A stretch of 63,867 nt of DNA. Origin: Gracilinanus agilis (Eukaryota). Under the pieces are notes generated by a model. That model saw nothing but the letters and a program-made list of their open reading frames with translations. It did no database searches and was not told the DNA's origin. The stretch covers positions 285,300,911-285,364,777 of the forward strand of contig NC_058135.1 of the NCBI RefSeq assembly GCF_016433145.1. Direction: 5' to 3'. This document shows, piece after piece, positions 10,059-63,867 of the stretch (position 1 is its first letter; each line of letters begins with the position of its first letter). The position numbers were made by a program, and so were the translations under genes.

Positions 10059-10527
10059 TGTCAACTGTGTTTTTGGAAACCCCAGGTTTGCCCCTTCCTG
10101 CCAAGGGAACTTGCCTTAAGGGAAGTCTCAGACTGACCTTGTTTTAGACTGAAGAATGGACCACCGAACATCCATTAAGTATCCTGAACAGGAGTGACAG
10201 AAATACCCCAAACCTCAATCACCCTTTTTGTCTTAGAAGTTTCCCCCATTGTATCAGAGATCCTTTCCCAGGTGGACCAGTACCTGGCTATAATCATCTT
10301 TTTGTATCCATTGTAAAGCATTAGTCTCTCCCTGATGATCTAGCCCTGGACTCCACATTTCCTCATGTCCATTGTAAATTGAATAAATCAAAACCTCCTG
10401 TTCTTTATTCCCCCAAAAGGCATATAAGACCCCCAGGTTCTATTGCTCTTTGGAAAATCATCTTTGGTGGTATGTTTCCCAGAGACACTGTTCCCAGAGT
10501 CCCAGAGCTTTGGTTCTGTATGGCTGC
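10059..10527. mobile_element. Older LTR-like fragment inserted in L1, cut by the younger ERV
   Basis: Starts with TGT, interrupts L1 3' sequence, contains AATAAA and TATAA motifs. Confidence 0.55.
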
Positions 10528-12220
10528 TGTAAGAGGGAAATTTTAGGTTTTTATAGATATATATTTAAAGTGTGGCCACCAGGAATCAACAATTCAGATT
10601 GATTCCATAATTAAATTAGACCCAAGTCAGGACTGGGTTTAAGGTAGTTTATTTACAGTTAGGAGGGAAAAAGGTAGGGAAATAGAGTGAGGGAGAGTGC
10701 AGGCCTGGACGGAGAGAGAAGGTTAGAAGGCTAAATAAATGAGGCTACAAGCCACAAGGCCCAGCAACCAGATAGGCTAATGCCTACTTAAGGCAGAATT
10801 TGGAAGAGGCCTAGGTAGGCCAAGGAAGTCAGCCTAACTTACCCACGTGACAATACAGAGTAGAAGCTGCCTGAGGTCTCCTCCGAGATCCCTCAGCACC
10901 AAGTTCAAATCGGGAACTCCCTCAACAGGAAGTTACCAACATACTTAAAGAGAGATAGTGTCTCTCATCACTCCCTGGGGGTCCACCTCTAATTCAAGTG
11001 GACAAATGGCAGCCTCTATACTGATTTGGACTGCCCAAAGGGCCGTCCCTTGTTCTTGATTTGTTACTTAATGTCATGTGTGGGTAACTCATCTCCCTCC
11101 CCACTAAGGGAGGTGGGAATGACATCATCTTGAGTAGGTAGAGTTTTGGCTATGAATGGACTAGAGCTAATTCTATTTACACAATCCCCCCTGACGATCA
11201 TTGGGTGCCTAGTCACCCCACGTGATCATTTTGCATTATCACCTTATACTCTCACAAAGGTCTTCTAACTACAATAGTTAGAGGTAGGAGGGAAATGGAA
11301 AAGAGAGAAAGCAAAACCAATGTTTTGCTAAGCACATCGACAAGAAACCAATTGGCATAACATGTACAATTAAAGTAGCTGTTCAAAACCTATCAGTCCA
11401 TTCATTTATACCCAAAGTTCATTCTGGATCGCTCGATGCAACAAACTCCATCAGTTCAATCAATTGTAACCCAAAGTTCATTCTGGATCTCTTGACTAAA
11501 TGTAGGTTCTTCAGGCATCTCTCTGCAAACAGTTCATTCTCTGGATTAAGGAATCAGCAAGTTTCTTTCCCTGAGAATTTTTCTCAAACAAAATCAAAAA
11601 ATTTAATCTTGGATATAATAAAAATATAATTAAATCTTGGATTTTATAAAAATACAATCCCCCCTGACGTGGGTATTTAGAAATACCCAGATCAGCTCAA
11701 GATATATAATTGAGTCATGGGGTTGTATGAGTAAATTCAAAAGAAACAACAAAAGTATATAAAAAATCAAATAGAAGAAAATTAAAACTTTGGAAAAAGA
11801 AAACATTAAAATCAAAATCAAAATGTCAAAAGCTACGTAGATAAAACTTTTGAATAAACAAAAATAAATTTATAACAGGCCCTTGTATTAGGGTCCAATT
11901 TATATAATTCCCATCCTACTAGTCTGTAGGACACAATGCAGTAATACTGCACTTACCCATTTGCAGCTAAGACTACAGGAAGTTGCCATTCTATAAGAGA
12001 GAAAAAAGGACCAGATTATATGCAAGGGAAGTGCCTGTCATTCCCTTCATTCTCAGGAATATATGGGTGAGCCAGATGAGAGCCAACCTGCGCTACCTGA
12101 CTGGCAGTGTAGTTCGAAGAGTCCTATGTCTTAACATATGTCAAGCGTCGCAACTTCGATTCTTACACTGAGTTCAAGTCCTTGGTGTTGGCGTGGGAGT
12201 ACCTCAATCCCACCTGGAGG
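10528..12220 (-). mobile_element. Truncated ERV: 3' LTR (10528-11183) plus PPT and internal fragment
   Basis: TG...CA termini. On the - strand the PPT AGGGGGGAT abuts TGT. Related to the solo LTR at 63073-63713. Confidence 0.8.
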
Positions 12221-12746
12221 AGGAGGAAGGAAGGGAAGCAGGAAGTCAGGCCAAAGGGATTTCCTCCTTCCACTCAAGGTTTCCCACTACTCCATCACTT
12301 CTCCTCTCCTCCAAGTGTCTTCTGCAACAAACTCTGCCAAAGGGCACGTACCCCATATGAGTTGAGCCTCTCACACCCAAAACAAAGTCATCTAACTAGA
12401 TTGAAAGAATTGAGGACAATGAGGGTTACAACCCTCATTGGCAGGGTTAAGCAAAGGAGAGGGAAGAAGTGGACTTCAAAGAAACCCTTAACAAGAAACT
12501 TTTGAGGTGTGGCTCAGAGGAAAAGTCCCTGGATCTGGAATCAAGGGTCTGGGTTCAAATTCCAGCCCCAACACATGCTGTATAAACCTGTATCAATCAC
12601 TGAAACTGAGATTAGATGAGACCTCTAAGGTCCAGGGAACACAAAATAACTTTGGAGAGTGTCTTGTGTTCCCACCCTGACATGGCACAGTGGAGAGGAG
12701 GGAGGGCACTGGACCTGGGGTCAGAAAGCCCTGGATTCAAATCTCA
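12221..12746 (-). repeat. Inverted duplicate of INCENP intron 1 segment 15981-16496
   Basis: Reverse-complement match over about 520 bp, roughly 95% by eye, with one insertion of about 13 nt. Confidence 0.92.
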
Positions 12747-14104
12747 AATATCATGGCATCCCCTGCTCTATAAACTACCATGACTCCCTATTACCTTCTA
12801 TTGTCTTTTGTGTAAATAGAATTAGCTCTAGCCCATTCATAGTCACCTCCTTTTTTAGTTCTATAAAATAATTTTTGGGTCATTTGATTGATATGGCACT
12901 AAATTAATAAATTAATTTTGGGAGAATTACCATTTTTGGATGTATTATCTCAGCCTACTCATAAGCAATTAATATTTTTCCAGGTGTTTAGTTCTGACTG
13001 TACTTATTATTTATGTGAAAAGTGTTTTCTTATTATGTTCATGTAGTTCCTGAGTTTGCCCAAGTATTTTATATTGTCTGCAGTTCTTTTAAATGGTATT
13101 TCTCTTCCTATCTCTTGTTCCTGAACTTTATTTTTAATATATGAATTGCTGATGATTTATGCACTTCAGTATATAAATGAGTTCAATGGACAACCACTTA
13201 AAATTCTCTCACCACCCCCATTCACCTGGTGGTCTAATAATATTAGAATGTCCCCAGCCCTTCTACAGGGACATAGCTTCTATGTTGTAACAATCACCTG
13301 CTTGTTGTTCAGTTGTGTCTGTGACTCCATGAACCATAGCACACGGGGCCCTTCTGTCCTCCACAATCTCTCCAAGTCTGTCCAGGCTCATGTTCCTCGT
13401 TTACTGTCTAAAAGGACTGCTTCCCCAGCTGTGTGACCCTGGGCAAGTCACTTGACCCCCACTGCCTCGCCCTGACCACTCTTCTGCCTTGGATCGAATA
13501 CACAGTATTGACTCTAAGATGGAAGGTGAGGGGTTAAAAAATAAATAAATAAAAGGACTGCTTCTCCTCTTGTAAAAGTCTCAGGCCTCTTCCCCTCTTC
13601 TCGTGGCCTTGATCAGGGAATGTTTTCTTATTCTGGTCTTCATTTTGCCTGTTGCATCCCCCTCTTTCTCCATCCCTCCCTCGGCTCCTCGGAAATGCTT
13701 TACTTATGTATCCTAAGTGGGCTCCATACTCTCAGGGGCCTGAAAAGTTCTGTTCAGGAAGCTGAATTTCCTGTTAGCCACAGAAGATTTCTACAGGGCA
13801 GCCGGGGAGTGGCTGCAGGGGACAGAAGGTTGGACTGGGAGTCATGAAGGCGATTCCTGAGTTCAGATCTGACCTGAGATGCTTCCTAGCTGTGTGACCT
13901 TGGACACATGACTCGATCCTGTTGGCCTCAGTTTCCTCATCTGTTAAATGAGCTGGAGAAGGAAATGGCAAAGCTCTGCAGTATCTCTGCCAAGAAAACC
14001 ACGAATGGGATCACAAAGAGTAGGACATGCTGAAAAAAACCGACAGAACAATAACAAAAGAGCAGATTCCCTCACTGGCTGGTTCATACCTTTCCCTTCT
14101 GTCT

Positions 14105-14429: not shown

Positions 14430-14900
14430 TGTACCTATCACGTGGGCAGCCTCTTTACAATTGCACCAGCACCCAAGACTGGGTCATCCGCAGATACAAA
14501 GAGAAAAACAAAACGGGGCCTGCCCGCCGGAAGGGGCATCGAGGGGAAGGCTTCAGACCACCTGGACTCGGGGAAGTGAATAAAAACCTAACGGTCCAAG
14601 TCAAAGAGTGGGGGGCGTGACTCGTAGCCGACACGCAGGGACTCGTAGTCTTTCTCCTACCCCTCCGAGCATTTGGACGCTCCCACACACACACCTCCCC
14701 CCACCTCCAGAAGCGCCTCTCGGACCAAAAGCGGAAGCAAGAGGTCTTTACGTTGACCGTGCCTCCGATGCTCATTGACTGACAACCATCTTGGCCAATA
14801 GGCGCTCGACTTGCCTCTAGACGCACGGCAATTGGCTAACCTCCAGGCGACGGCCCGCCTCCCCTCTCCTACGATTGGCCACGTCTTCGGTTTTGAAAAT
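14430..14900 (+). promoter_or_regulatory. INCENP promoter, G2/M cell-cycle type (3 CCAAT boxes + CHR)
   Basis: CCAAT 14795-14799, ATTGG 14831-14835 and 14874-14878, CHR TTTGAA 14892-14897, ETS-like GCGGAAG near 14730, CACGTG 14439-14444, all within a CpG island. Confidence 0.8.
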
Positions 14901-15072: not shown

Positions 15073-18000
15073 GTAAGGAGGAAGCTGCGCCGCTCCCTCC
15101 TCCCCATCCCCCACCCCTTTCCTCGAGCGCATCCGCCAGGCGCGACTATCCTGGGGAGGCCTCCGGCCCCCCAAACCCCTCCCCGGGATGACAGTCGGAG
15201 GCCTGCAGTCTGCCCCGCCTCCTTTGTGCGCCCTCTATGTCCCCAGCTGTAAAAAGAGGGGGAGGGGGAACGAGGACTGCGCCTATTGCACGGGTGGGGA
15301 AGCTGAGGGTGGAGCTGGGGAGGGGTGGTCGAGGGTCCGTGACTTTCGCCTCTGAGGGCTCTGGAGCTTTTAAAAAGGCTGCTTGCGTCCTGCGGGTCGG
15401 GCATTTCCTTTGTGGTCCCGGGTGCTCAGCCCGATACCTGTTAAAGCACCTAGTAGGTGCTTTAACGCAGACTTGTTGACTGCCTGCTTGCCCGCTCCCC
15501 GCCAGGGCCTCTCCTCTCCTATTGGCTGCTCATTCCTGCCTCAGCCACCTGTTAGGATGATGGGAAGTCAATGATGCCAGGTGGGCTTGACCCTGAGGTG
15601 GGGGCGGCTTTCTCTACCCTAATTGTCTCCTCTTGGGGTGGATCTGGTGAAGCCTGTGGAGATGAAATCCATTCATTGAAATATACTGGATTCTCTGGAG
15701 ATACTGATCCAGGTTTAAAAAAAAACAACAAAACACAAAGTGCACAGACCTCGAGATTTAGTCAGAGACCCCCCAATCTCTTTTCTGCTTAAATTGTGAG
15801 GTGGTGTTATGAGCACTGCTGTTATGGAACTTACTGAAAACTGTTTCAGAATCCCGGGTTCATGGATTTAGGCCTGGAAGGGGCCTTAGTGATCAAGATC
15901 AGATCCCTTATTTGTAAATGAGAAAACTGAGGCACAGAGAAATTAGTGACTGGCCTCAGTCACACAGCTAGTAAACATTGTGAGATTTGAATCCAGGGCT
16001 TTCTGACCCCAGGTCCAGTGCCCTCCCTCCTCTCCACTGTGCCATGCCAAGACACTCTCCAAAGTTATTTTGTGTTCCCTGGACCTTAGAGGTCTCATCT
16101 AATCTCAGTTTCAGTGATTGATACAGGTTTATACAGCATGTTTGGGGCTGGAATTTGAACCCAGACCCTTGATTCCAGATCCAGGGACTTTTCCTCTGGG
16201 CCACACCTCAAAAGTTTCTTATTAAGGGTTTCTTTGAAGTCTACTTCTTCCCTCTCCTTTGCTTAACCCTGCCAGCAAGCCTTGGTTGTAACCCTCATTG
16301 TCCTCAATTCTTTCAATCTAGTTAGATGGCTTTTTTTTGGGTGTGAGAGGCTCAACTCATTTGGGGTATGTGCCTTTTGGCATAGTTTGTTGCAGAAGAC
16401 ACTTGGAGGAGAGGAGAAGTGATGGAGTAGTGGGAAACCTTGAGTGGAAGGAGGAAATCCCTTTGGCCTGACTTCCTGCTTCCCTTCCTTCCTCCTGGTC
16501 CAGTAGTTGGTACTCTATATGCAGAAGGTACCAAAAACCTGTCTGCAAGTTTAGGATCAGAAGGAAGAGTTCAAATATTTGCAAGCTGCCATTCTGTATG
16601 GATGGAATATTCAAAACCCATCCATCATCATCCTTGCTTTTGTTGAATGCCTACTATGGACCCTGTACTGGGAGGAAGATAAAGGCATAATAATAAAGAT
16701 AAGGCATCGCCCTGGTTACTCCAGGACTTAAGGTAACCAAGAACACAGACTTCTTTATAATGGTTCAGAAGCAAGATTAGTTTATCAATTAGTTTAGGAT
16801 CTTTTAGGACGATGTTTTGCCTATCATCAGGCTGATTGGATTTGGGGGAGGGGAGGGTAGAGGGAGCAAAGCCTTTCAATGTGGATGAACTTGTTAATTA
16901 AAGCCAAGTGAAAGACTTTGGAGAAGGAGGATCTTGCTCCAATGACTCATTTTTTCCCAACCATTATTTTTTACAAAAATCTTTGTTTTATTCACTTTTT
17001 TTTGCACGATGTTAATTTCTTAGTACTGTTCACACTTCCTCCTCCAAAGCTTCAACTCTGAAATCTGATATGTTAAGGGAAAAAGTTAAACAAACCAGAC
17101 TGACATCAAGTGGAACTACAGCAATGCAACAGCCCACACTTAGAAACCAATGCCTCTTCCTATGAGAAAGACACTGTCATATCTTTGTTGTAGCCCAGAT
17201 TGGGCATGGCATGTAACTGGAATTGTGAAGTCTTTTAAGTATTGTAGTGGCCCACGGCACTGGGCTCACTCAATGAATATGTCTACTTCTCTCCCTCTCC
17301 TCCCCCCTGGGCTTTGGGTCCCCTTTTTCCTTTCCCCCACCTAGAGGTTGGTTGTATCTTTCTCTTAATACCATGAAATCAAACCTCCATGCCAGTATTT
17401 CCTCCCACTGTTAACATCTCTGGGACATTGATTGCATGGTTGTCTGTAGGGATAGGGATTAGACCTTTGAGTTCCTTAATTGGTATGGGAAACTTCTGGA
17501 TGAGGCCCCTCCCTTTTGCTATAATCATCTCTGAGTTCTGAGAGAGTTACCCAGAGCAATGAATAGTGACTAGCCCAGAGTTACACAGCCAGAATGTGTG
17601 AGAGTTTAGACTCTACCTGGTCATCTGTCCAGATTCTGAGATCAACCCTTCCCCACCAGGACACATTGCCTGTTCTCTAGAGCTGCTGATTTTAAGGAAT
17701 TTAATAAGAAATTTCCCAGACATTTTTTTCTACTTCAAAGATCTCCTGACCAACTTTCTCAAAGGCACCATTACTTTTACCTTGCCTAGTCTTAGAATGT
17801 ACATTTCATTTCAATCCATTTGGGAACTGAAGGAAAAACATTTGGGCTTGTGGGGCAGTATTCAGAATAGAGGGCTTTGAAGAAAAAGAAATGAGGATCT
17901 GAGCTTTAAGACAGGAAAGGATGATTAGAAGGGATCTATTCCCCCCCTATTTTACATTAGAGGAAATTTTGAAGCCCAGGGATAGGGAAATGACTTGCCT

Positions 18001-20926: not shown

Positions 20927-21063
20927 ATGGTGACCATGACAGGGTCTGCCAACATCTTGGAGGTATGCAGCAACAAACTGAGGGAGTTTATGTGCAATGT
21001 GGACAACAAGGACATGGTGTGGCTGCAGGAGATCAAGGAGGAGGCCATAAAGATGTTCTCTAG
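20927..21063 (+). CDS. INCENP: INCENP coding exon 2 (exon starts 20919): MVTMTGSANILEVCSNKLREFMCNVDNKDMVWLQEIKEEAIKMFS, CEN-box
   Basis: Acceptor ttacag, Kozak ACCATGG, donor AG|GTAAAT. Matches the human N-terminus (LCNMDNKDLVWLEEIQEEA). Confidence 0.98.
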
Positions 21064-46389: not shown

Positions 46390-48814
46390 GTGAGGGCAGG
46401 CCACAAAGGTCCCCCCAGAGCAGAAGGAGGGATAGACAGATGGACAGATGACTCCTGGTGCTTGCCTCCAGCAGGCTGATTGGTGCCCATTTGTGTGTGT
46501 GTAAGAGTCCATGCAAATGAGTGAGACAGTTCTGAGAGGCAGGCATTTGTAGGTGTTATCCCCATCTTCAGATTAGGAAACTGAGGCTCACACAAGTTCC
46601 TTGGGAGCAGGATTCAAACTCAAGCAAGTCTTTATTGTCATTTTATATTTTCTAAAAGTAGGTTTTAAGACGTGTTCCCCTCCCTTGTCCCATTGAATTC
46701 TTTGTGTAAAGGAAAGGTAGGCCAAACTGACCCCATGGGGTGGGGGCCACGGACCACCTTCCTGGCCCTCCATCTCGACAGTGAAAAGGGAAGTGGGTGA
46801 GTGACGACGAGTGCATTGTCCATTCTCCTGGACTTCCTTCACTCTGTGCCACATTCCATTAGAAGTCTTTCCACGTTTCTTCAAATATTTCATTTGTTGT
46901 TTCCCTTTTTTGTCCCTTTTTTCTAATTACACGTAGAAACGTTCTCTAAGAATGGTTACTTTTGCAGCCCACATTTTCTCCCCTCCCCAGATGGTAACCA
47001 GGGTGAACGGGTTTTTACAGTGTGGTAGCAGCACCCATTTCCATATTTCTCTTTCATTTGCTGTTTCTTGCCGTATACAAAGAATCCCTCACCCCCGGCG
47101 CTCACAGCTGGTTAGCCGTTCCCCAGGCGGTCTTTCCTCTTTGTTTCCAGTTTTTTGCTTTGGCCATTTGGGCAGAGGCAGTATGTGGTTCCAGGTCTTC
47201 CCTCGGCATCTTTGCCTCCGTGTGGCTCAGGACCATTTCTGCTTCCTCGGGTAGCGCAGTGGGGTCCGGAGCTCACTGGAGAAGCGGCCGGACCTTTTCT
47301 GGTTCTTATTCCGTTTGGTGCGCTTACTTCAGCCTCAGGTGCTCTCGGGATGCTCCGGCTCCCCCCGGGTTTCTGTGAGCTCCTGGGCCCCCTCGCATGG
47401 TCTTCCCTGAGATTTTACAGATCACTTTCTGTTTTTATTTTTATTTTCATTCATTTATTTTTTTTTTAGGCCCTCACCTTCCATCTTGGAGTCAATACTG
47501 TGTATTGGCTCCAAGGCAGAAGAGTGGGAAGGGTAGGCAATGAGGGTCAAGTGACTTGCCCAGGGTCACCCAGCTGGGAAGTGTCTGAGGCCAGATTTGA
47601 ACCCAGGACCTCCTGTCTCTAGGCCTGGCTCTCAATCCACTGACCCACCCAGCTGCCCCCCCCACTTTCTGTTTTTAACTGGCATCCGGCCACTTGGTGA
47701 GAAGCCGGCCAGCCCCAACTGACCCAAAAAGGGGCTTCTTGGCTTCCTTTTCCAGAGACACTTGGGCTGGCAATGTTAGCCTGTGCAGGCTCTGAGCCCA
47801 TTTTTGCCGCCTTTGCTCTACTGGCTTAATGAAGTGCTTTCGGTGGGTGGCCTCCAGGGGTGCCCCATCGTCTGCCCTTTTTTTTTTTTTTTTTTTTTAA
47901 CCCTTAACTTCTGTGTATTGGCTCCTAGGTGGAAGAGTGGTAAGGGGGGGGGCATGGGGGTCAAGTGACTTGCCCAGGGTCACACGGCTGGGAAGTGTCT
48001 GAGGCCAGATTTGAACCCAGGACTTCCTGTCTCTAGGCCCGACTCTCCATCCACTGAGCTACCCAGCTGCCCCCCGTCGTCTGCTTTTGATTCTTCCGGC
48101 TGGCCGTTGGTCTCAGTCTTTGAGTGTGACCGTACACGGGCAAGAGAGGCTGTAACGGCTCGTTTCCGGCCTGTTTCTCTCAGCTCTCCTTCGCTGGCAC
48201 TCAGACTTTCCGCTCAGCTCTGAGCTTTTTTGATCATTAAAAGCCCATTTTTCCCCCCTGCAGGACTATCATTCTTGGTTTTTAGGCCGGTCTCCAGACT
48301 GACCCTGTAACGTGTGGGGAGGGACGGCTCTGAACAGGGGCTGACACAAAGCCTGTGAACATTTTGATGGTGGAGGGGACGGAGGAGGGACGTGGCGCTG
48401 AGAGGGGGCAGCTTCCCCCAGATCCTCTCGGTCACCTGCAGGCCTGGGAGTGCATTTGGGCGTCTCACGTAGCGCCTGCGCACGGTCCCACAGTGGGGTG
48501 ACTGCCGGCCCCCCTCTGTCGCCACGTGCCCCAGCTGGGGGAGTCCGCGGGGCCTCGGACTTGGCGGAAGAGTGTGGAGAAAGTCTTGGGGGAAGATAGA
48601 ACAGAAAACGTGGTTCAGGCCGTCGTCCTGCGTGCACCGTGCTGGCACGAGGACAAAACCGGGCCGGGCCCTGCCCCCGGCTCTGGGAGCCCCGGTCCTT
48701 GGCCTGCCTTCCTGACCTGCCAGCAGGTAGAGAGCGGCCCGTCAGGCACGGGAGCCGAGGGAGGGGGACTCGGGCCCCTGCCTGCCGGCGACAGCTCGGG
48801 CTCTTGACTTCCAG

Positions 48815-48893
48815 AGAGCGGCTGGAGAAGGAGCGAGCCTTGAGGCTGCAGAAGGAGCGGCTGCAGCGGGAGCTGGAGGAGAAGAGGAAGAAG
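48815..48893 (+). CDS. INCENP: INCENP exon 16: ERLEKERALRLQKERLQRELEEKRKK
   Basis: Matches human; phase 2-0. Confidence 0.96.
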
Positions 48894-49027
48894 GTGAGGC
48901 TCCGCGCCAGCACGGCCTGGGCCCCCCCCAGCCTCAGAGCCCGCCCGTCCCAAGGGGGCCGTCCCCGGGGGGCCCTCGGGTGGGGGTGTCCCGCCTCCCC
49001 GGTTCACACGTCCCGTGTCGGCCCCAG

Positions 49028-49144
49028 GAGGAGCATCAGCGCCAGGAGCTGGCGCGCAGGAAGCTGCAGGAGGAGCAGGAGAGGAAGGCCAGGGAGGCCG
49101 CCGCCGCCGCCAACAAGTTCCTGAACGTGACGGTGGACGTGCAG
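49028..49144 (+). CDS. INCENP: INCENP exon 17: EEHQRQE...NKFLNVTVDVQ
   Basis: Ends LNVTVDVQ as in human; phase 0-0. Confidence 0.97.
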
Positions 49145-49369
49145 GTGAGACTGTCCCGGAGGCCGCAGAGCCCCGAGCCGGGCCTCGCTTCCCTCGGCGC
49201 AGGCCCAGGGTTTGGCTCCCGGCGTGGGAGGCCCTCGGCAGCCTCACGCCAGACACGAGGCTGGCTCGTGGCCTCTCCGCACCTCGGGGCGGGGGGGGGT
49301 CGAGCCGGATCCGGGGGGCTTCCCTGTGGCGCCGGGGTGACGGGGTGACGGCGTCTGTTTCCTCTTAAG

Positions 49370-49520
49370 TCTCCAGTTTGCAACTCATACGAAATGACCC
49401 CGCAGGGCCCCCGGGGGGGCCCCAAGATCAATCCGGACAACTACGGGATGGACCTGAACAGCGACGACTCCACGGACGACGAGACGCAGCCCCGGAAGCC
49501 CATTCCCGCCTGGGCCAATG
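49370..49520 (+). CDS. INCENP: INCENP exon 18 (IN-box N-terminal part): [11 protein letters not shown]...[15 protein letters not shown]...PIPAWAN
   Basis: IN-box motifs conserved. The in-frame acceptor is AAG (49367-49369); donor G|GTGAGG. Confidence 0.96.
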
Positions 49521-49611
49521 GTGAGGGCCGGCCTGGATGGGGGGGGCGGCGGAGAGGGGGCGGCGGGGTTCCGGGGGGGGACACACGCGTGACCCCACTC
49601 TCCCGCCCCAG

Positions 49612-49826
49612 GGAGCCAGCTGAGCCAGGCCGTCATCCGCCAGTACTACAACCCCCCCGACATCGACCAGCTCTTCGGCACCATCCTCAGCCCGCGGCTC
49701 GAGGACATCTTCAACAAGAGCAAACCGCGCTACCACAAGCGCACCAGCTCGGCCGTCTGGCACTCGCCGCCCCTCCCCGGATCGCGGCCCTTCACGGGCG
49801 CCTCCTACGGCCTGAAGAAGCCCTGA
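49612..49826 (+). CDS. INCENP: INCENP exon 19, last coding exon (IN-box, KRTSSAVW Aurora B-activating TSS motif), stop TGA
   Basis: [21 protein letters not shown] matches human. Total CDS of 2637 nt is divisible by 3. Confidence 0.98.
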
Positions 49827-50094
49827 GCCTCCCCTGGACCGGCTGCGGCTCTCCGGACTGGACGGTGTGTTTTCTCTAAGAAATGGGGGGTTTTTAGCCA
49901 AGGGGAGCCGGAGGCCTCTCGAGCCGGGGCTGCCTGGCCGCAGCGGGCGCCGGGCCTGGGGTCAGCAGAGACTGAAACCCCGAGATGCCGTGGGGGGGCG
50001 ACGGTCACGGCCCCCCGGAGAGCCGGCGGCCCCCGGCTTGTACATAGGCAGCTAGTTTGAGAGGACGTCGAGCCCCGCATTTTAAGGGCAGATC

Positions 50095-50854: not shown

Positions 50855-51130
50855 GGGTAGAAAGACAATAGAAGGTAATAGGGAGTCATGGTAGTTTATT
50901 GAGCAGGGGATGCCATGATAAAATTTACACTTTAGGAAGATCATTTGACAGCTTAGTAGAGGATAGACTGGAAAGGGGAGTGAATTGAGGCAGGGAGACC
51001 AAAGATCATGTACCAGGTGGTCGCCGTGTAGGTAGAAAGATGCTATGAGAGATGTGAAGGTAGAATTAGCAAGATTTGGCAACAGATTGGCCATATGGGA
51101 TGAGGGGAAATAAAGAGCTGAGACTAGAAC
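50855..51130. mobile_element. Ancient LINE (L2-like) fragment; donor of the 60-bp copy at 12749-12808
   Basis: L2-like degenerate sequence continuing beyond 50920. Confidence 0.55.
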
Positions 51131-62084: not shown

Positions 62085-63867
62085 TCAAGGGATAGGAATA
62101 GGCAGTTTTAAGATGAAGAAACCAAAACTAATAGTAATCACATAAAAAAATGTTCTAAATCCCTCCTGATTAGACAAATGCAAATCAAAACAACTCTGAT
62201 ATACCACCTCACCCCTAGCAGAGGGGCCAATATGACAGTAAAGGAAAATAACAGATGTTGGAAGGGATGTGGCAAAATTGGGACACTAATGCATTGCTAG
62301 TAGAATTGTGAATTGATCCAACCATTCTGGAAGGCATTTTGCAATTATGCCCAAAGGGCTTTAAAAGAATACATGTTATTTGATCCAGAAATATCACTAC
62401 TGGGTCTGNNNNNNNNNNNNNNNNNNNNNNNNNNNNNNNNNNNNNNNNNNNNNNNNNNNNNNNNNNNNNNNNNNNNNNNNNNNNNNNNNNNNNNNNNNNN
62501 NNNNNNNNNNNNNNNNNNNNNNNNNNNNNNNNNNNNNNNNNNNNNNNNNNNNNNNNNNNNNNNNNNNNNNNNNNNNNNNNNNNNNNNNNNNNNNNNNNNN
62601 NNNNNNNNNNNNNNNNNNNNNNNNNNNNNNNNNNNNNNNNNNNNNNNNNNNNNNNNNNNNNNNNNNNNNNNNNNNNNNNNNNNNNNNNNNNNNNNNNNNN
62701 NNNNNNNNNNNNNNNNNNNNNNNNNNNNNNNNNNNNNNNNNNNNNNNNNNNNNNNNNNNNNNNNNNNNNNNNNNNNNNNNNNNNNNNNNNNNNNNNNNNN
62801 NNNNNNNNNNNNNNNNNNNNNNNNNNNNNNNNNNNNNNNNNNNNNNNNNNNNNNNNNNNNNNNNNNNNNNNNNNNNNNNNNNNNNNNNNNNNNNNNNNNN
62901 NNNNNNNNNNNNNNNNNNNNNNNNNNNNNNNNNNNNNNNNNNNNNNNNNNNNNNNNNNNNNNNNNNNNNATATTTATAGCTGTGCTCTTTGTGGTGGCAA
63001 AAAATTGGAAAATGAGGGGATATCCCTTGATTGGGGAATGGTTGAACAATTTGTGGCATATGACGGTGATGGTGTGTGAATAGAATCAGCTCACCCTCAT
63101 TCACTTGTTTAGATTCTCGACACCAGAAAAAATGTCACTCCACCCAACTTAGAATTAAGTGGGGAGGGGGAGGTCTGTTACCCACACATGATAGTAACAA
63201 ATAAAAAACAAACAGTGTCAAGGTTGTCATTTGTCCACTTGAAATTGGAGATGGACGCAGGAAGTGACGAAAGCTGCCCTTTTAAATATGATGGTAACTT
63301 CCTGTGGAAAGCTGTTGGCGCTTTGAACTCAGTGTAGAAGAATCTCTGGTGAGACCTCAGACTGCTTCCCTTTGAATTGTCACGTGGGTACTTTAGGCTG
63401 ACTCTCTTTCCTTTTTCCTTTGGCATTTCTGGAGGCTCCAGCCTCAGGGAGGCCTCTCTTCTTAGAGGAGGCCTTGTGGCTAGAAGCCTGGTTTAATTCA
63501 CTCTGTGCCCCTCTGCTGGGGCCTCTAAATTCCTACCTGCTTCAGGCCTCTGGTCTGGGCCAGAGTTTCTCTCTCTTAATTTTCCTACTGTCAACCTTCC
63601 TAATTGTAAATAAACCACCATAAAAGTCATCCTGACTTGGGTCTATTTTATTTTGAAGTCGAGTTAATCGATTTCTTTGGCCATACCTTAAATATCTAGT
63701 CTCCCCTCTTACAATGGAATACTATTGTACTATAAGGAATGAACTGCTTGATTTCTATAAGAAATGGAAAGACTTCCATGAACTGATGCAGAGTGAAATA
63801 AGTAGAACCAGAAGAACATTTTACAAAGAAACTGAAACACTGTGGGATGATCAAATGTAATTGACTT
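62085..63867 (+). mobile_element. L1 3' portion with assembly gap and LTR insertion
   Basis: Typical L1 ORF2 end (MQIKTTL.YHLTP; IQPFWK; LFVVAKNW). Confidence 0.85.
63073..63713 (+). mobile_element. Solo LTR (ERV1-like) inside L1 3' end
   Basis: TG...CA termini, 4-bp TSD ATGG, both ends similar to the LTR at 10528-11183. Confidence 0.85.

Follow-up and report, generated by a model that had tools for sequence, protein, structure and literature searches.

A truncated provirus beside INCENP in Gracilinanus agilis ends in templated insertions that may have copied the junction of a vanished viral integration

Results

A truncated provirus and a chain of inverted copies beside INCENP

The window analysed here is the whole stretch of 63,867 nucleotides from Gracilinanus agilis (assembly GCF_016433145.1, contig NC_058135.1, positions 285,300,911 to 285,364,777 of the forward strand). 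Its gene was identified as INCENP by an IN-box (PF03941) together with an exon near 20927, which we take, by its motif, to be the N-terminal coding exon. Based on this identity and the position of the first coding exon, the sequence referred to as donor A was placed in intron 1. The INCENP promoter (14795-14897) holds three CCAAT boxes and a TTTGAA element, an arrangement that presumably resembles that of cell-cycle promoters. Close to the other end, an AATAAA motif is found at about 50096, and donor B lies about 0.75 kb beyond it. CpG-rich blocks are located near both ends of the gene. A CpG-island-like block (GC about 0.6-0.7) covers the last INCENP exons at 48001-50000, less than 1 kb from donor B.

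The truncated provirus, here termed P1, landed in an older LTR that itself sits inside an L1 element. The features of the locus are as follows.

10059..10527, plus strand: target LTR of P1, older and unrelated, lacking its last ~80 bp
10528..11183, minus strand: 3' LTR of P1, gammaretrovirus-like, with an intact U5 end (10528), a purine tract next to 11184 and a U3 haplotype of the minority type
11184..12216, minus strand: internal part of P1 that is left, located 3' of pol, with the break at 12216
12214..12746, minus strand: A', copied in inverted orientation from INCENP intron 1 (15981-16503) and sharing a 3-bp microhomology with the ERV end
12417..12440, unstranded: fold-back 1, perfect 11-bp inverted repeat with a 2-nt loop, where the donor forms a stem of just 4 bp (10 nt replaced by 6)
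12664..12680, unstranded: fold-back 2, in which 12664-12673 is the reverse complement of 12635-12644; net insert of 12-13 nt absent from the donor
12747..12748, unstranded: filler of 2 nt at the A'/B' junction
12749..12808, minus strand: B', inverted copy of 50861-50920 (59/60)
12809..12845, plus strand: C', first 37 bp of a U3 end, beginning exactly at the terminal TG; majority family haplotype
12844..12850, plus strand: candidate micro-piece of 7 bp, also present 32 nt further along the LTR (11115-11109)
12851..13161, unstranded: old L1 resuming after ~0.65 kb missing
15981..16503, plus strand: donor A, native INCENP intron 1
50858..50920, plus strand: donor B; no viral DNA there now

P1 belongs to a gammaretrovirus-like family in which truncation is common

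The gammaretrovirus-like nature of the family is reflected in natural open reading frames of the relative L077, which encode Gag p30 (PF02093) and the MLV-type integrase C-terminal domain MLVIN_C (PF18697). The family elements end in TG...CA and are flanked by 4-bp target duplications, which are exact in 29 of 35 LTR copies and carry one mismatch in four, the other two copies being 3' LTRs (L005, which has no full LTR, was left out of this count). P1 itself breaks about 0.5 kb beyond the last pol reading frame of a relative and, in the window, keeps only non-coding 3' sequence; its U5 end is the one intact viral terminus at a host junction (10528). An older relative (72-83%) of the P1 LTR is present at 63073-63700.

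Of 20 copies selected by 3' internal sequence, 2 keep both full LTRs within about 15 kb; both LTRs were also found in 2/20 copies selected by 5' sequence, eight of the latter 20 having assembly gaps. Since truncation frequently affects either side, it is in itself hardly informative, and part of the truncated copies may be assembly breaks. Truncation specific to the U3 side was discarded as a family trait, since the copies selected by 5' sequence are frequently truncated at their 3' side as well. At 17 junctions of other truncated copies, searched over about 10 kb to the left and 15 kb to the right, no templated chains were found except for the LTR stubs of L060 and L071 (see below) and a piece of inverted LTR at L070. 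In L070, a microhomology of about 6 bp joins the truncated provirus to 400 bp of its own LTR, copied in inverted orientation (2.4% non-CpG divergence). A 65-bp match in L058 was rejected as a templated chain, as it sits in another multi-copy element.

The insert is a single-copy chain of three inverted pieces

A sequence-only reading of this DNA had described three inverted pieces in a row beside the truncated provirus, and comparison of the window with itself recovered all of these matches. A' (12214-12746) aligned with 16503-15981 at 93.9% over 537 columns (E 0.0; exact from 12221/16496), and B' (12749-12808) matched 50920-50861 at 59 of 60 positions. For the third piece, the proposed match of 12809-12842 to 11183-11150 (33/34) was confirmed, and the similarity to the LTR extends further, to 12845 (35/37). 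The internal ERV sequence is indeed broken off, with the end at 12216 instead of the proposed 12220: 17 of 19 other ERV copies align up to 12216 and the remaining two to 12214-12215, and all of them run on into other sequence. Both donors are native loci, as had been proposed, with MIR-like matches spanning 15981 and a repeat match spanning 50920.

The flanking L1 resumes with about 0.65 kb gone when compared to L1 copies spanning this region. The total host loss amounts to about 0.7 kb, composed of about 80 bp of the older LTR and 618-666 bp of L1, the latter range being derived from seven of nine spanning L1 copies (outliers, 258 and 884). The junction homologies are 3 bp between ERV and A', 0-1 bp with two filler bases between A' and B', and 1 bp between B' and C'. 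The filler may reflect slipped synthesis at a short direct repeat immediately before it. Next to C', 12846-12850 does not fit 14 L1 copies, and a post hoc and weak match tentatively marks 12844-12850 as a further micro-piece. A normal concerted provirus has the same 4 bp on both flanks; here, the left flank and the flank on the B side differ at 4/4 bases, and a target-site duplication is thus absent.

With the 40 best candidates scored per search, the composite was found once in the genome and not at many loci, and A' and B' had one near-identical partner each. This bears on a possibility raised in the sequence-only reading, by which read-through RNA of INCENP was captured by reverse transcriptase; the resulting recombinant element would then have inserted at this locus. 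A' and B' are both INCENP-sense on the ERV strand, as such a capture would have it; however, the insert is a single copy that, in a genome of 3.7 Gb, lies only 3 kb away from its donor, where a product made in a virion would not be expected to land. Moreover, C' on that strand is opposite in sense to ERV RNA and hence wrongly oriented for an RNA template, and there is no target duplication. We therefore find this origin hardly credible. Retroviral transduction would place the host piece inside two LTRs and spread it elsewhere, whereas the insert is present once and lacks a 5' LTR.

An assembly artefact was considered using the contigs of run X1 (contigs only, perhaps from the source sample), compared over 12150-12880. 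The assembly is fragmented, with gaps in many ERV copies, and none of the eight listed contig pieces (of 928) in run X1 bridges a junction, stretches without contig cover being uninformative. However, the copies differ from their donors by about 2% plus the fold-back indels, and for 12304-12418 run X1 contains the sequence of the donor as well as that of the copy, in separate contigs, which makes an artefact very improbable. Contig depth over 12304-12418 was 20.5 for the copy and 35.1 for the donor, a difference that could hint at a heterozygous insert, although contig depth is uninformative on zygosity. The A'/A pair, proposed to be able to invert the promoter and exon 1, has not done so here: the MIR is continuous over 15981, and exon 1 stands in gene sense.

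Fold-backs within A' point to serial template switching

Within A', two fold-backs interrupt the alignment to the donor. By simulation, the chance that random inserts form such structures is 1.2e-4 and 3e-5 per site, respectively. As the fold-backs are in the copy, A' is the derived sequence. Both newly made stretches are found on the right-hand side of the sequence they copy. This arrangement suggests that synthesis started from the viral end and ran from left to right, although switching between strands could produce it too. Serial template switching, as proposed from the sequence alone, is therefore supported and was even understated in view of the two fold-backs and the slipped junction, whereas the derivation of C' from 11150-11183 is probably wrong (see below). 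The insert combines local templates, fold-back and slipped synthesis, and microhomology, as templated insertions do. With aberrant one-ended integrations it shares an intact viral terminus at one host junction and another viral end that is truncated and extended on nearby host or viral templates by short homology.

With respect to its age, the three pieces together show a non-CpG divergence of 11/571 (1.9%; CI 1.0-3.4) compared to 72/2440 (3.0%) in four LTR pairs (P=0.20); for raw divergence, the same comparison gave P=0.03-0.08. Six of the nine A'/A substitutions cluster in 54 bp (12334-12388; P=0.003), and five are placed at donor A, the substitutions being unpolarised. Should the clustered substitutions date from the copying itself, the LTR pairs may be older than the event. 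Dating by private substitutions was abandoned, as it failed to track LTR-pair age. Altogether, the divergence is compatible with a repair at the time of P1 integration.

C' probably stems from another viral DNA and is joined to B' at a putative integration site

C' starts exactly at the U3 terminal TG, and its polarity is that of a U3 end joined by integrase to the top strand at 50861. By our estimate, the chance that a random switch hits the exact LTR terminus is of the order of 1e-3. C' carries the majority alleles C24/T35, and over 36 bp it has exact matches at 190 genomic sites. The P1 LTR instead carries T24/C35, a combination shared by 4 of the 70 other LTRs. When 71 LTRs were placed in a tree without their terminal 45 nt, the P1 LTR grouped with three T24 copies, one of which also has C35 (support 76). 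As the haplotype of C' does not match the P1 LTR, and P1 shares its alleles with its closest relatives, these sequences argue that C' probably came from another viral DNA and not from the local LTR at 11150-11183. A single viral DNA with identical LTRs was demoted on the same grounds.

The integration sites of the family provide a second line of evidence. From 27 family insertion sites (L107 and L113 were excluded from the matrix), a target preference of T(-3), not-T(0), not-A(+3) and A(+6) was derived. The native position 50861 (50858-50867) fits 4/4 informative positions, as do 3.5% of the window positions, and its target score lies at the 96th percentile. The corresponding likelihood ratio is estimated at about 4-12, which is modest support. 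Together, the exact LTR terminus and the target fit at 50861 suggest that the B'/C' joint is an integration junction, which the sequence-only reading had missed. That reading assumed a deletion in an already integrated provirus, followed by MMBIR or Pol-theta repair in which C' arose by a chance switch to the local LTR and donor B was reached via a promoter-terminator loop. Template switching is clear, truncated copies are common, and CpG-rich blocks do lie near both gene ends; the exact terminus, the target fit and the haplotype mismatch are nevertheless left unexplained, and we consider this course of events improbable. A promoter-terminator gene loop is not needed to account for the use of donor B, and a single case cannot show one, as 38 kb is already within ordinary contact range.

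B' and C' may also have been joined separately, if the end under repair, after copying donor B, picked up an unintegrated cDNA terminus of another family member. Breaks are known to capture retroelement cDNA, and such an event would fit the haplotype mismatch, the exact terminus and the 1-bp match at the joint without integrase acting at 50861. On the other hand, the 4/4 target fit would then be due to chance, and we regard such a capture as unlikely.

A further possibility is the split integration of one viral DNA, with its U3 end joined by integrase at 50861 and its U5 end joined at 10527, about 39 kb apart, either by integrase or by 2-3 bp of microhomology. Direct resolution of such an intermediate would delete about 39 kb including INCENP, and template switching would have rescued the gene. 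Each of the two LTR termini is exact, their proviral orientation agrees, and a second insertion becomes unnecessary. In addition, a half-site comparison indicated a possible 2-3 bp microhomology between the U5 end and the lost target sequence: two of the four closest relatives of the target LTR continue with the same TG as the U5 end, which is true for 0/54 true half-sites. A split integration would, however, need a provirus with two different LTRs, such as intermolecular plus-strand transfer or a subsequent conversion could generate. A single provirus may indeed carry discordant LTRs, given that the LTRs are mosaic, with other T24/C35 copies sitting elsewhere in the tree, and that the two LTR ends of L159 differ at a family-variable site. 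Yet C' and the P1 LTR differ at two sites at which P1 shares the alleles of its relatives, and in the other proviruses checked both ends agree at sites 24 and 35, although only L077 carries a minority allele there. We therefore rate a split integration as rather unlikely.

Terminal LTR stubs recur in the family

Short LTR-end pieces were also observed elsewhere in the family. In two of the 20 proviruses selected by 3' internal sequence, the 5' LTR has shrunk to a U3 stub, of 35 bp (L071) and 82 bp (L060), within normal 4-bp duplications. U3 ends were further sampled by the exact 36-bp pattern, taking the first 30 of the 190 sites. Three of these 30 were free U3-terminal stubs with exact terminus and no other LTR part nearby (L185, 61 bp; L182, 72 bp; L201, around 1501, 157 bp), a number with P of about 0.007 if breaks are uniform; a 174-bp stub of the same kind is present in L005. 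The other sampled ends comprised 21 LTRs with matching flanks, five longer elements or elements without duplication, and one gapped case. L195 and L210 were excluded from the stub counts because of gaps, and L097 was left unused. At the U5 side, an 80-bp stub with exact terminus occurs within the window at 2305-2384, where it replaces about 12 bp of an older SINE without target duplication, and none of 11 other sampled U5 ends (one gapped) was a stub. The stub at 2305-2384 is the third LTR-end junction of P1's LTR family within 50 kb.

Discussion

The insert beside INCENP is likely the scar of a single error-prone repair synthesis that extended the broken end of P1 over nearby templates. The P1 end at 12216 would have primed on intron 1 through the 3-bp microhomology, and the polymerase would have disengaged and folded back twice while copying donor A. 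It would then have jumped to 50920, read 60 nt of host sequence and continued straight into the 37 nt of a U3 end joined at 50861. After the L1 had been rejoined at 12851, synthesis may have gone on along the intact strand, and INCENP, an essential gene, would have been kept. The repair probably took place at or soon after P1 integration.

With the case for and against it roughly balanced, our preferred reading of the distal part is that B' and C' are copied in one run from an integrase-made junction of a second viral DNA at 50861, which is now absent there. The second viral DNA would have been either an integration by one end that aborted in the same germ cell, or a provirus carried by another haplotype and later lost. 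The native 50861 has no insertion trace, no other contig carries one, and the junction reading draws on one locus. In a wider and more tentative version, which we think is doubtful, the family often integrates by one end in the germ line and leaves integrase-joined LTR stubs; two viral ends would have struck both ends of INCENP in one cell, and the gene-saving repair would have copied the distal junction as the only record of an erased insertion.

Several known systems share parts of this picture. In aberrant HIV-1 and ASLV integration (PMC5041404), free viral 3' ends prime on nearby host or viral templates, with several pieces in series. Those one-ended events, like the one described here, have one normal-looking viral end, while the other is truncated and joined by short homology to host or viral pieces in either orientation, with a host deletion and no short duplication. 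In contrast to the insert at INCENP, which is endogenous and in the germ line, they were induced by drugs or mutants in cell culture; moreover, the viral end appended here apparently belonged to another viral DNA that had a host flank of its own. SD-MMEJ by polymerase theta and MMBIR/FoSTeS (PMC5728401) likewise involve snap-back and loop-out synthesis, microhomologies of 1-3 bp and serial templates. The 520-bp tract and the 38-kb jump exceed the near-break inserts of that study, and MMBIR fits better.

The non-classical PtERV insertions of the chimpanzee, in the portion of PMC4079660 at hand, also occurred in the germ line without target duplication and with target deletion and 2-3 bp of microhomology; they appear there without a chain of templated host pieces or a captured integration junction of the kind proposed for P1. 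HTLV-1 proviruses without 5' LTR lost this LTR before integration (PMC6950816). Like P1, they kept the 3' LTR and lost the 5' part, in P1 probably at or soon after integration, and they resemble L060 and L071. These HTLV-1 cases keep the short repeat, whereas the INCENP locus has none and carries inserts. A literature search, mostly of open papers and in which LTR stubs were not a target, revealed no germ-line example of this kind. Two aspects seem to be new, the proposed capture of a junction whose insertion has vanished and the recurrence of terminal stubs.

So far, aberrant integration has been documented for drug-stressed or mutant HIV and ASLV in culture. If our reading is true, an inherited natural case with recurring stubs would suggest that failed integrations shape germ-line genomes, and some truncated ERVs would have been born truncated. 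A templated insert with a host-LTR junction that is absent from the native site would then constitute a searchable signature for lost or aborted insertions.
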